Positions 6,865 to 31,692 of a DNA stretch of 64,000 nucleotides are shown in pieces. The DNA is taken from the NCBI RefSeq assembly GCF_988242995.1, contig NZ_OZ547043.1, one strand, 5' to 3'. The position numbers were made by a program, and so were the translations under genes. The first letter of the stretch is position 1; the number at the start of each line of letters is the position of its first letter. The notes beneath the pieces were generated by a model. It made no database searches. It saw only the letters and a list, made by a program, of their open reading frames with translations, and was not told the DNA's origin.

Positions 6865-6940
6865 GGTTTCGGGCTGTTTTTTTTACACGGGGAGCCAGCG
6901 ATCCTGCGTTCCCCGCTGATCTATTTAGAGGGTTATACGC

Positions 6941-8221
6941 TTGTTTGACCGTTATGATGCTGGTGAGCAGGCGGTACTGGTACACATCTATTTTACGCAA
7001 GACAAAGATATGGAAGACCTCCAGGAGTTTGAATCTCTGGTCTCTTCCGCCGGTGTCGAAGCATTGCAGGTGATTACCGGTAGCCGTAAAGCGCCGCACC
7101 CAAAGTATTTTGTAGGTGAAGGTAAAGCAGTTGAAATTGCGGAAGCTGTCAAAGCGACGGGTGCTTCGGTCGTTCTTTTTGACCATGCCCTGAGCCCGGC
7201 GCAAGAGCGTAACCTGGAGCGTTTGTGCGAGTGTCGTGTTATCGACCGCACCGGCCTTATTTTAGATATTTTCGCCCAACGTGCGCGTACCCATGAGGGT
7301 AAGTTGCAGGTTGAGCTGGCGCAGCTGCGCCATCTGGCTACGCGCCTGGTGCGTGGCTGGACCCACCTTGAAAGACAGAAAGGCGGGATAGGTTTGCGTG
7401 GTCCGGGTGAAACCCAGCTCGAAACCGACCGTCGTTTGTTGCGTAATCGCATCGTGCAGATACAGTCGCGCCTGGAAAGAGTTGAAAAGCAGCGTGAGCA
7501 GGGGCGGCAATCGCGTATCAAAGCCGACGTTCCTACTGTTTCGCTGGTGGGATATACCAACGCCGGTAAATCTACCCTTTTCAATCGCATCACCGAAGCG
7601 CGGGTCTACGCGGCAGACCAGTTGTTTGCCACCCTCGACCCGACGTTGCGGCGTATTGACGTCGCGGATGTCGGTGAAACCGTGTTGGCAGATACCGTAG
7701 GGTTTATTCGCCACCTGCCGCACGATCTGGTGGCGGCATTTAAAGCCACGTTACAAGAGACGCGGCAAGCCACATTGCTGCTGCACGTCATTGATGCGGC
7801 GGATGTACGTGTACAAGAAAACATCGAAGCGGTGAATACGGTTCTTGAAGAGATCGACGCTCACGAGATCCCAACCCTGCTGGTGATGAACAAGATCGAT
7901 ATGCTGGAAGATTTCGAACCGCGTATTGATCGGGACGAAGAGAACAAACCGATCCGTGTCTGGCTTTCCGCACAGACCGGAGCGGGGATACCACAGCTTT
8001 TTCAGGCTTTGACGGAGCGGCTTTCCGGCGAGGTGGCGCAGCATACATTGCGTCTGCCACCGCAGGAAGGGCGTCTGAGAAGTCGTTTTTATCAGCTTCA
8101 GGCAATAGAAAAAGAGTGGATGGAGGAGGACGGCAGCGTAAGTCTGCAAGTTCGTATGCCGATCGTTGACTGGCGTCGCCTCTGTAAACAAGAACCGGCG
8201 TTGATCGATTACCTGATCTAA
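6941..8221 (+). CDS. hflX: ribosome-associated GTPase HflX
   Basis: 426-aa ORF with G1 GYTNAGKST and G3/G4 motifs; TTG start at 6941 per ORF track. Confidence 0.92.
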
Positions 8222-12363: not shown

Positions 12364-12458
12364 CCTTCCCCGAACTGAAATAAATTAGCGACACAGCTTG
12401 TGGCTGGTTTATCATCAATATAAATGTATTTTTTCCCGTTTTCCCTTTTGAGGTTGAT

Positions 12459-12884
12459 GTGCAGTTAACGAGTTTCACTGATTACGGATTACGTGCGCTG
12501 ATCTACATGGCGTCATTGCCAGAAGGGCGGATGACCAGTATTTCTGAAGTGACTGACGTCTACGGCGTCTCCCGTAATCATATGGTCAAAATAATCAATC
12601 AACTTAGTCGTGCCGGCTACGTGACTGCTGTTCGTGGAAAAAATGGCGGCATTCGTCTGGGTAAACCGGCGAGTGCGATACGTATTGGTGATGTGGTGCG
12701 CGAGCTGGAGCCCTTATCGCTGGTGAATTGCAGCAGTGAGTTTTGCCACATTACACCTGCCTGTCGGTTGAAACAGGCGCTTTCTAAGGCCGTGCAAAGT
12801 TTTCTTACGGAACTGGATAACTACACGCTTGCCGATTTGGTTGAAGAGAATCAACCGCTTTATAAATTATTGCTGGTGGAGTGA
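12459..12884 (+). CDS. nsrR: nitric-oxide-sensing transcriptional repressor NsrR (Rrf2 family)
   Basis: 141-aa ORF, GTG start; Rrf2 HTH and Cys ligands ([12 protein letters not shown]). Confidence 0.93.
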
Positions 12885-20371: not shown

Positions 20372-20454
20372 GAATGTTTTAGCAATCTCTTTCTGTCATG
20401 AATCCATGGCAGTGACCATACTAAGGGTGACTGCCATTGATGGAGGGAGACACA

Positions 20455-22080
20455 GTGCACTGGCAAACTCACACCGTTTTTAATCAACCTATACCATTAA
20501 ATAACAGCAACTTATACCTGTCTGACGGCGCGCTCTGTGAAGCGGTAACGCGTGAAGGTGCTGGCTGGGATAGCGATTTTCTAGCCAGTATTGGTCAGCA
20601 GTTAGGAACGGCTGAATCTCTTGAACTGGGGCGGCTGGCGAATGTGAATCCGCCTGAATTATTGCGCTACGATGCGCAAGGACGCCATCTGGACGATGTG
20701 CGTTTTCACCCCGCCTGGCACTTGCTGATGCAGGCGCTATGTACCAATCGGGTGCACAATCTTGCCTGGGAAGAAGACGCTCGCTCCGGCGCATTTGTGG
20801 CGCGCGCGGCGCGTTTTATGTTGCACGCACAGGTTGAGGCAGGGTCGTTATGTCCGATAACGATGACCTTTGCCGCCATGCCATTGCTGTTACAGATGTT
20901 ACCCGCGCCGTTTCAGGACTGGACCACGCCGCTGTTGAGCGATCGCTACGATTCTCACTTATTGCCAGGTGGGCAAAAACGCGGTTTGTTGATTGGCATG
21001 GGAATGACGGAAAAGCAGGGCGGTTCCGATGTCATGAGCAACACCACCCGCGCAGAGCGCCTGGAAGATGGCTCTTATCGGCTGGTGGGGCATAAATGGT
21101 TTTTCTCGGTGCCGCAAAGCGATGCGCATCTGGTGCTGGCGCAGACTACGGGCGGTTTGTCCTGCTTTTTTGTGCCGCGCTTTTTGCCTGACGGGCAACG
21201 CAACGCGATTCGCCTCGAGCGGCTGAAAGATAAGCTGGGTAATCGCTCTAACGCCAGCTGCGAAGTGGAGTTTCAGGATGCCATTGGCTGGTTGTTGGGG
21301 CAGGAAGGGGAAGGAATTCGTCTGATCCTGAAAATGGGTGGGATGACGCGTTTTGATTGCGCCCTGGGTAGCCATGCCATGATGCGCCGTGCATTTTCGC
21401 TAGCGATTTATCATGCACATCAACGCCATGTTTTTGGTAATCCATTGATCCAACAGCCCCTTATGCGTCATGTCTTAAGTCGCATGGCACTTCAGCTTGA
21501 AGGGCAAACGGCGTTGCTGTTTCGTCTTGCGCGAGCGTGGGACCGGCGTGCCGATGCCAAAGAAGCTCTGTGGGCGCGTTTATTTACGCCTGCGGCGAAA
21601 TTTGTGATCTGCAAACGAGGTATGCCGTTTGTGGCCGAAGCGATGGAGGTGCTGGGCGGCATTGGTTATTGCGAGGAGAGCGAGCTGCCGCGGCTTTACC
21701 GGGAGATGCCGGTAAACAGTATTTGGGAAGGTTCCGGTAATATTATGTGCCTGGATGTACTGCGCGTGCTCAATAAGCAAGCAGGTGTATACGACTTATT
21801 GTCGGAAGCATTTGTGGAAGTGAAAGGGCAGGATCGCTATTTTGATCGCGCGGTACGTCGTTTACAGCAGCAGCTGCGTAAGCCTGCTGAAGAACTGGGG
21901 CGAGAGATTACTCATCAGCTATTCCTGCTGGGCTGCGGTGCGCAAATGTTGAAATATGCCTCTCCGCCAATGGCGCAGGCGTGGTGTCAGGTGATGTTAG
22001 ATACGCGCGGCGGCGTACGGTTGTCAGAGCAGATCCAGAATGATTTATTGCTGCGGGCGACGGGGGGAGTGTGTGTGTAA
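20455..22080 (+). CDS. aidB: acyl-CoA-dehydrogenase-like adaptive-response protein AidB
   Basis: ORF 20437-22080; GTG start at 20455 (HWQTHTVFNQPIPL...) gives 541 aa. Confidence 0.92.
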   Translation: MHWQTHTVFNQPIPLNNSNLYLSDGALCEAVTREGAGWDSDFLASIGQQLGTAESLELGRLANVNPPELLRYDAQGRHLDDVRFHPAWHLLMQALCTNRVHNLAWEEDARSGAFVARAARFMLHAQVEAGSLCPITMTFAAMPLLLQMLPAPFQDWTTPLLSDRYDSHLLPGGQKRGLLIGMGMTEKQGGSDVMSNTTRAERLEDGSYRLVGHKWFFSVPQSDAHLVLAQTTGGLSCFFVPRFLPDGQRNAIRLERLKDKLGNRSNASCEVEFQDAIGWLLGQEGEGIRLILKMGGMTRFDCALGSHAMMRRAFSLAIYHAHQRHVFGNPLIQQPLMRHVLSRMALQLEGQTALLFRLARAWDRRADAKEALWARLFTPAAKFVICKRGMPFVAEAMEVLGGIGYCEESELPRLYREMPVNSIWEGSGNIMCLDVLRVLNKQAGVYDLLSEAFVEVKGQDRYFDRAVRRLQQQLRKPAEELGREITHQLFLLGCGAQMLKYASPPMAQAWCQVMLDTRGGVRLSEQIQNDLLLRATGGVCV

Positions 22081-30970: not shown

Positions 30971-31278
30971 AGATACCTCCTCGACGGCTGACTTTGTGTG
31001 CTCTCCTCTGTGATGATCTTCTGATTTAATTTTAATCAATGATAAAGAAGTTGATGGTGACCATTTCTGATGCAGTTGTTCAAAAAAACACCATGATGAA
31101 GTGTGATGAACTTCAAATCAGCGTGTTAGTACGATTTGGTGAAAGATGAGATTTATTTGTCGGCTGGCCTTGAGTTTAGCAGGGTATGTCAGTACTATAA
31201 TGCGTCATTTTTCAGCCGACCTTTAACACGTTCCTTGCCTCCCCGGGATTCGGCTGACCCAGACAGGAGGCTGAATAA

Positions 31279-31692
<414 letters not shown>

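Follow-up and report, generated by a model that had tools for sequence, protein, structure and literature searches.

The window analysed here, a stretch of 64,000 nucleotides read on one strand, is a segment of the Escherichia coli chromosome that runs from queG to mpl and follows the K-12 gene order of 4.394-4.458 Mb. An IS200 copy lies between ytfK and paeA, and the strain of the window is therefore not K-12. A 3-kb probe taken around the hflX start found matches, 95-100% identical, in 5,425 of the 5,426 complete E. coli genomes. We transferred to the window both the RefSeq K-12 annotation and that made by PGAP for a strain of 99.9% identity, and found that the non-ATG starts of the curated K-12 annotation in this region are exactly those of hflX, nsrR, aidB, tamA, ytfT and yjfF, all on the plus strand. 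A first-pass annotation, made from the letters alone, had named the same six genes; its list was complete and correct, and each codon was found in its place at the head of a protein of the expected length. PGAP uses the same start as K-12 for five of the six, the exception being ytfT.

Six non-ATG starts among about 65 gene starts amount to 9%. It has been previously reported that 83% of E. coli genes start with AUG, 14% with GUG and 3% with UUG (10.1101/063800). With the latter two adding up to 17%, the 9% of the window lies below the average of the species and shows no enrichment of non-ATG starts (binomial P(X>=6 | n=64, p=0.17) = 0.97), and their presence is ordinary bacterial biology. All six genes have an in-frame NTG at the 5' end of the open reading frame with no better candidate before the conserved protein. 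Back to the in-frame stop, no upstream NTG is found for hflX, nsrR, tamA and yjfF, and the competing starts that do occur, an upstream ATG/TTG in aidB and a downstream ATG in ytfT, were settled by conservation. Furthermore, each start is preceded by a Shine-Dalgarno (SD) motif at functional spacing that is conserved in relatives; aligned spacings of 12-13 have been given for nsrR, tamA and ytfT (PMC9841429). None of the six starts was overlapped by an RNA element in an Rfam search.

Two sets of relatives were compared. A scan of a genome collection with YtfR yielded 80 Enterobacteriaceae loci, from which ytfT, yjfF and tamA were examined. RNase R homologues yielded 11 syntenic loci (Klebsiella, Kluyvera, Cedecea, Siccibacter, Buttiauxella, Shimwellia, Pantoea, Duffyella and others), and the comparisons of hflX, nsrR and aidB draw on these 11 genomes only. 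Start-codon alignments were anchored on the proteins by tblastn. Across the 11 to 80 Enterobacterales available for a given gene, the aligned codon was always ATG, GTG or TTG, the sole exception being a one-codon shift in aidB of Pantoea; the compared species share ancestry, and such codon counts are not independent events. Sequence upstream of the aligned starts diverges freely in relatives, conservation of the coding type starts at the aligned codon, and per-column variation revealed an invariant [A/G]TG beside hypervariable spacers.

One alternative to genuine non-ATG initiation is that some of these calls are annotation errors, the true start being a nearby ATG: 7010 in hflX, 20440 in aidB, 59432 in ytfT or 60465 in yjfF. 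For hflX, the start codon in both the K-12 and PGAP annotations is TTG (6941..6943; 426 aa), which follows an in-frame stop at 6926 and is the sole NTG before codon 24. Read from the sequence, an SD-like GAGGG lies 8 nt 5' of the TTG (6928..6932), where relatives carry a purine-rich GAGG or AGGAG, and the aligned start was TTG in 11 of 11 Enterobacterales loci spanning two families. The rival is the internal in-frame ATG of codon 24 (7010..7012, at +69). An in vitro INRI-seq peak has been reported there in 5/5 replicates, but the in vivo Ribo-RET value is 0 (PMC9825163 Table S3). The Pfam GTP-bdg_N model starts at HflX residue 25, just past the rival ATG; Pfam boundaries alone were indecisive for this gene, as they were for aidB, ytfT and yjfF, and for hflX we used alignment to solved HflX structures instead. 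Strand beta1 (residues 11-18, AVLVHIYF) aligns with the mycobacterial HflX chains, which places the rival ATG after a conserved strand, and 6 of the 11 relatives have T, I, K or L at codon 24. ATG 7010 was excluded as the conserved hflX start on these two grounds. We also observed a conserved hairpin at 6888-6915, just 5' of the hflX ribosome-binding site. The fold of the hfq-hflX spacer was no better than that of shuffled sequence (z = -1.0).

The aidB gene starts with GTG (20455..20457; 541 aa) in both the K-12 and PGAP annotations, and its conserved SD motif GGAGGG (20442..20447) places GGAGG 8 nt from the start. An in-frame ATG five codons upstream (20440) offers itself as the true start; it overlaps the SD motif, however, and Kluyvera, Siccibacter, Shimwellia and others lack it, while GGAGGG is kept. 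At the position aligned with 20455, approximately 7-8 of the 11 relatives have ATG and two have GTG. The annotated ATG of Duffyella aligns with this GTG, and that of Pantoea lies one codon downstream of the aligned position. The solved AidB chain begins at the residue of GTG 20455, but this is a property of the construct. No relevant publication on the start codon of aidB was found in a literature search.

In yjfF, the start codon GTG (60441..60443; 331 aa) lies within the last 14 nt of ytfT, and its SD motif AAGGAG (60426..60431; 9 nt to the GTG) lies inside the ytfT coding sequence, with a purine-rich AAGG(A/G)G kept across species. Of 77 species, 64 have ATG and 13 have GTG at the aligned start. 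Codons 2-8 are conserved, those 3' of the ytfT stop (codons 5-8) showing synonymous variation only, whereas codon 9, the M9 encoded by ATG 60465, is replaced by Thr in some species. The possibility, named with the first-pass calls as what would refute them, that initiation takes place at downstream ATG codons finds no counterpart in conservation either here or at M24 of HflX.

In ytfT, the K-12 start GTG (59429..59431; 341 aa) is followed directly on its 3' side by a second codon ATG (59432..59434) that is the PGAP start and was likewise the start in the 2006 K-12 annotation. The SD motif TAAGGAG (59416..59422), listed among the sites in PMC9841429 Table 3, is near invariant, holds the ytfR stop TAA and lies 6 nt from the GTG. 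Of 80 species, 68 have GTG and 12 have ATG at the aligned start, so that the first codon reads [A/G]TG in 81 of 81 sequences with T and G invariant, while at the six spacer bases between the SD motif and the start all four nucleotides occur and the major allele reaches only 36-64%. An invariant [G/A]TG beside a variable spacer is the pattern of a start codon and not of a spacer. The second codon is ATG in 79 of 80 species; the exception, Enterobacter mori L037, has AGG. A manual TetRP call ("3. 2014") corresponds to signal at GTG 59429, at a resolution at which, according to its own authors, one-codon (3 nt) differences are hard to tell apart (PMC4909307). Taken together, the comparative pattern favours GTG 59429 over ATG 59432, as the first-pass annotation had judged probable, and it is possible that ATG 59432 is also used as a second start.

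For all four genes, we thus regard annotation error as very improbable, the least credible of the readings considered here. The start calls, which had been offered as the least certain coordinates of the first-pass annotation, are better supported than was feared, since conserved protein begins at or just after all six codons. The TRAINSPOTTER N-terminomics data contained no entry for these genes by gene name or UniProt accession, and no match for these starts was found in the Giess 2017 data.

The remaining two genes, nsrR and tamA, share an overlapping start motif. The nsrR start codon GTG (12459..12461; 141 aa) stands in an AUGUG context, with an out-of-frame ATG at 12457 (ATGTG 12457-12461), and the Rrf2 domain begins at residue 3 of NsrR. 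Its SD motif GAGGT (12450..12454), 4 nt from the GTG, is kept in 11/11 relatives and has been given as GAGGU with an aligned spacing of 13 (PMC9841429). The aligned start was GTG in 10 of the 11 relatives, TTG in one and ATG in none. An in vivo Ribo-RET peak is present in the nsrR start region and was assigned to a TTG at -5 (PMC9825163 Table S3). In tamA, the GTG (49248..49250; 577 aa) is the only in-frame start from the stop at 49203 to codon 50; the signal peptide begins there, and the aligned start was GTG in 46/46 species. Upstream lies a dual SD region (49228..49242) made up of AAGGA (49228-49232) and AGGAG (49238-49242; 5 nt to the GTG); these motifs have been subjected to mutational analysis (PMC9841429), and CAGGAG is invariant across species.

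Such motifs raise the second alternative, namely that initiation at the non-AUG starts is dual or ambiguous, and that overlapping AUGUG/GUGUG or tandem starts yield an additional product or a short ORF in competition with the gene instead of just reducing output. In the tamA motif (ATGTG 49246-49250), the AUG that overlaps the GUG opens an out-of-frame ORF of 10 codons (49246..49278), which has been described previously and was found in the window; reporters showed initiation in both frames, the GUG being used 2- to 3-fold over the AUG, and the short ORF was seen by RET/Api profiling (PMC9841429). The AUGUG of nsrR, together with the GTGTG of ytfT (59427-59431) and its tandem GUG-AUG, would fit the same idea, the tamA motif being the one of the three for which use of both starts has been published. 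However, the T at -1 that makes the overlapping tamA AUG was present in just 14 of 47 sequences, most species having C, and this AUG is confined to Escherichia and a few other genera. Because the GUG is invariant and the overlapping AUG is not, conservation argues that the tamA alternative ORF is incidental. In addition, no ambiguity was predicted for the AUGUG of nsrR or the GUGUG of ytfT (PMC9841429), and hflX, aidB and yjfF lack an overlapping start motif. We therefore consider a role in dual initiation improbable as an account of these starts, and return to the reading that each of the six codons initiates its own protein.

We then asked how the same starts vary within the species. Probes of 53 nt carrying ATG in place of the native start codon were run on the 5,426 complete E. 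coli genomes; such a probe has no 28-nt exact word in common with a wild-type genome and does not seed on it, and as a control the wild-type tamA probe matched 5,425 genomes. Polymorphism in the flanks may also stop seeding, and the counts of ATG variants are lower bounds. The probe search found no ATG variant of the hflX, tamA, aidB or ytfT start among the 5,426 genomes. An ATG form of nsrR was found in one genome, strain NA3664, in which the sequence was verified, and an ATG form of yjfF in at least 370, with sequence verified in one.

In the textbook mechanism, GUG and UUG are poorer codons than AUG for initiator fMet-tRNA, and non-AUG codons are selected against by IF3. At the six starts, fMet-tRNA very probably reads the GUG or UUG in the ribosomal P site, 3' of the SD motif, and owing to the discrimination by IF3 initiation there is less efficient than at AUG. 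In reporters, non-AUG output has been found to range from 10 to 100% of that of AUG (10.1101/063800). The six starts fall into two evolutionary classes. The first comprises hflX (UUG), nsrR (GUG, with UUG in one relative) and tamA (GUG), in which a non-AUG codon is kept both across Enterobacterales and in the E. coli population. In these three genes, going by the pattern of conservation, the weak start has most likely been selected to keep protein output low. HflX shares a transcript with the very abundant Hfq, NsrR is made from a strong promoter, and TamA is a low-copy outer-membrane component. The second class comprises aidB, ytfT and yjfF, for which close relatives have either ATG or GTG at the start, as do E. 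coli genomes in the case of yjfF. Given the frequent ATG of relatives and the two forms of yjfF within E. coli, the GTG of these genes is best read as a labile, nearly neutral or weakly selected state in poorly expressed genes. The tight packing of ytfT and yjfF in their operon, with the ytfR stop inside the ytfT SD motif and the yjfF start inside the ytfT 3' end, may allow translational coupling that lowers the cost of a GTG in these two genes.

Published work bears on two genes of the first class. As summarised in PMC6950321, Chhabra and Spiro (2015) described nsrR as strongly transcribed and inefficiently translated, and the same summary states that, as a result of this inefficiency, low-affinity NsrR targets partly escape repression. 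For hflX, a preprint noted the TTG start together with the need for tight control of expression, reported harm from an excess of HflX under chloramphenicol stress, and cited a 7- to 8-fold lower output from UUG (10.1101/2022.11.25.517942). The abundances quoted from PaxDB are 27.6 ppm for nsrR, 8.0 ppm for tamA and 0.086 ppm for ytfT (PMC9841429). The first-pass annotation had characterised the six genes as mostly regulators or low-abundance proteins, consistent with a use of weak initiation to limit expression, and this description survives in part. Low abundance holds for the three genes with quoted values. Limitation of expression by the start codon agrees with the published record of nsrR and hflX, and the conservation of tamA fits it as well, but it finds no support for aidB, ytfT and yjfF, of which many relatives carry ATG. 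The description as regulators does not hold: NsrR is the only dedicated regulator, AidB is a regulator secondarily, and the other regulators in the window (ulaR, ytfH, chpS and hfq) use ATG.

The strongest competitor is that all six non-ATG starts reflect neutral drift, tolerated in weakly expressed genes, with none kept by selection. The toggling of aidB, ytfT and yjfF between ATG and GTG among relatives is what drift would produce, as is the yjfF polymorphism in E. coli; non-ATG starts in the window are fewer than the genome average, and one natural isolate carries nsrR with ATG. Against this, tamA keeps its GTG in every species of the same genome sets in which ytfT and yjfF switch repeatedly, hflX keeps its TTG in two families, and no ATG occurs at the nsrR start of any of the 11 relatives, the ATG form of this gene not having been found in 5,425 of the 5,426 E. 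coli genomes. There is in addition published functional evidence, in the form of limited nsrR translation (as summarised in PMC6950321) and sensitivity to HflX dose (10.1101/2022.11.25.517942). We therefore consider drift at all six starts unlikely, although clearly less so than annotation error or dual initiation. The conservation of GTG and TTG could instead reflect other constraints, such as local RNA structure. Overall, it is very probable that all six codons are real initiation codons, with weak starts that were most likely selected in hflX, nsrR and tamA and labile ones in aidB, ytfT and yjfF.

HflX is a ribosome-splitting stress GTPase, and its UUG may be more than a passive brake. Because IF3 and the condition of the initiation machinery affect initiation at UUG with particular strength, translation of HflX could be coupled to ribosome or initiation-factor status, a form of sensing similar to that of infC, to which the hairpin 5' of the ribosome-binding site might contribute. 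We regard this extension as very doubtful.

For annotation quality control, these results confirm the six least obvious start coordinates in the window and resolve the disagreement between K-12 and PGAP over ytfT in favour of GTG. The split between fixed starts (hflX, nsrR, tamA) and labile ones (aidB, ytfT, yjfF) means that a non-ATG start alone is no evidence of adaptive down-tuning. That weak start codons limit expression is textbook biology, and no new question is opened by it. Much was already known: all six starts are in the curated annotation, and the tamA AUGUG, the inefficiency of nsrR and the TTG of hflX have been discussed in print. What is added here is the split between fixed and labile starts, comparative support for the ytfT GTG over the ATG, and the finding that the alternative AUG of tamA is not conserved.

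Several known systems resemble these starts. The GTG of lacI lowers the abundance of a repressor (Cherrak et al. 2024, PMC11445065), and nsrR, which encodes a repressor of the Rrf2 family, is of the same kind. In lacI, replacement with ATG raised protein and cut fitness in the mouse gut, whereas the six genes described here are known from sequence comparison and the literature; furthermore, lacI start codons differ between genera, whereas none of the 11 relatives has ATG at the nsrR start. The nsrR of Chhabra and Spiro (2015; Microbiology 161:2029) is the same gene with the same start, for which inefficient translation is reported. The tamA AUGUG site described previously (NAR 2022, PMC9841429) is identical to that in the window, with two SD motifs, a GUG and an overlapping out-of-frame AUG with its 10-codon ORF. 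The AUU start of infC (mentioned in 10.1101/063800) is a conserved weak codon that depends on IF3 discrimination, the general mechanism expected for the UUG of hflX; infC, however, combines a non-canonical AUU with a demonstrated IF3 feedback loop, and hflX, nsrR and tamA are likened to it by their weak starts only. Finally, the phage lambda S holin/antiholin gene (PMC9841429) has two starts a few nucleotides apart behind SD motifs, as does the GUG-AUG of ytfT. In lambda S both starts are demonstrated and the products differ functionally, whereas the putative products of ytfT would differ by one Met.

Screening 5,426 complete E. coli genomes with ATG-start probes, we found that nsrR, which begins with GTG in the window (12459), starts with ATG in a single genome, that of E. 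coli NA3664 (locus L097; NZ_AP048497.1, 4293431-4293603). This isolate provides a natural test strain for the weak-start hypothesis.

At hflX, where the TTG start lies at 6941, an internal in-frame ATG is present at codon 24 (7010-7012). Initiation mapping in vitro by INRI-seq revealed a reproducible peak at this codon, and no initiation peak was seen there in vivo by Ribo-RET; furthermore, codon 24 is not kept as ATG across the aligned relatives. Downstream of the hfq terminator and ahead of the hflX ribosome-binding site is a hairpin (CGGGGAGCC...GUUCCCCG, 6888-6915). All nine Enterobacteriaceae loci keep the 3' arm of this hairpin, GTTCCCCGCTG, and Pantoea and Duffyella do not. The hfq-hflX spacer as a whole folds no better than its shuffled versions (z = -1.0).

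The GTG start of tamA (49248) is overlapped by a 10-codon out-of-frame ORF (49246-49278), and it has been previously reported that this ORF is translated (PMC9841429). The ORF requires T at position -1; this base is found in just 14 of the 47 aligned sequences, with C in most. The pattern in the alignment therefore makes it unlikely that the encoded peptide is a conserved functional product. Among the loci compared, one on a contig titled 'Chryseobacterium sp. 18061' (L070, CACSKA010000007.1) contains an enterobacterial ytfR-ytfT-yjfF-tamA region with 93% protein identity to E. coli, and around the start codons it is very similar in sequence to L083, 'Citrobacter sp. 18056'. This assembly is likely mislabelled or contaminated.

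In the PGAP annotation, projected from a near-identical E. coli strain, YtfT (59432-60454) bears the product name 'galactofuranose ABC transporter, ATP-binding protein'. The name is apparently wrong, because the sole family match of the protein is to the membrane permease family BPD_transp_2 and the K-12 annotation names YtfT as the membrane subunit. In addition, the product of ytfI (43879-44790) is 303 aa long in both the window and the PGAP strain as compared to 312 aa in K-12, a C-terminal length polymorphism.

Between ytfK and paeA, the minus strand carries tnpA, which encodes a transposase of the IS200 family (about 46092-46550), and an Rfam match to STnc490, the 5' RNA element of IS200 tnpA (46560-46683), which together span 46092-46683. 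Four further Rfam matches, none of them related to the six non-ATG starts, were to the RpsF leader (31215-31299), the ES239 sRNA in the cpdB-cysQ interval (42737-42859), STnc450 upstream of paeA (48143-48200) and naRNA4 in the ytfQ-ytfR interval (57816-57892). Comparison of the annotations revealed that the ytfK-paeA interval of K-12 is without the IS200 insertion, and the window therefore comes from an E. coli lineage other than K-12.
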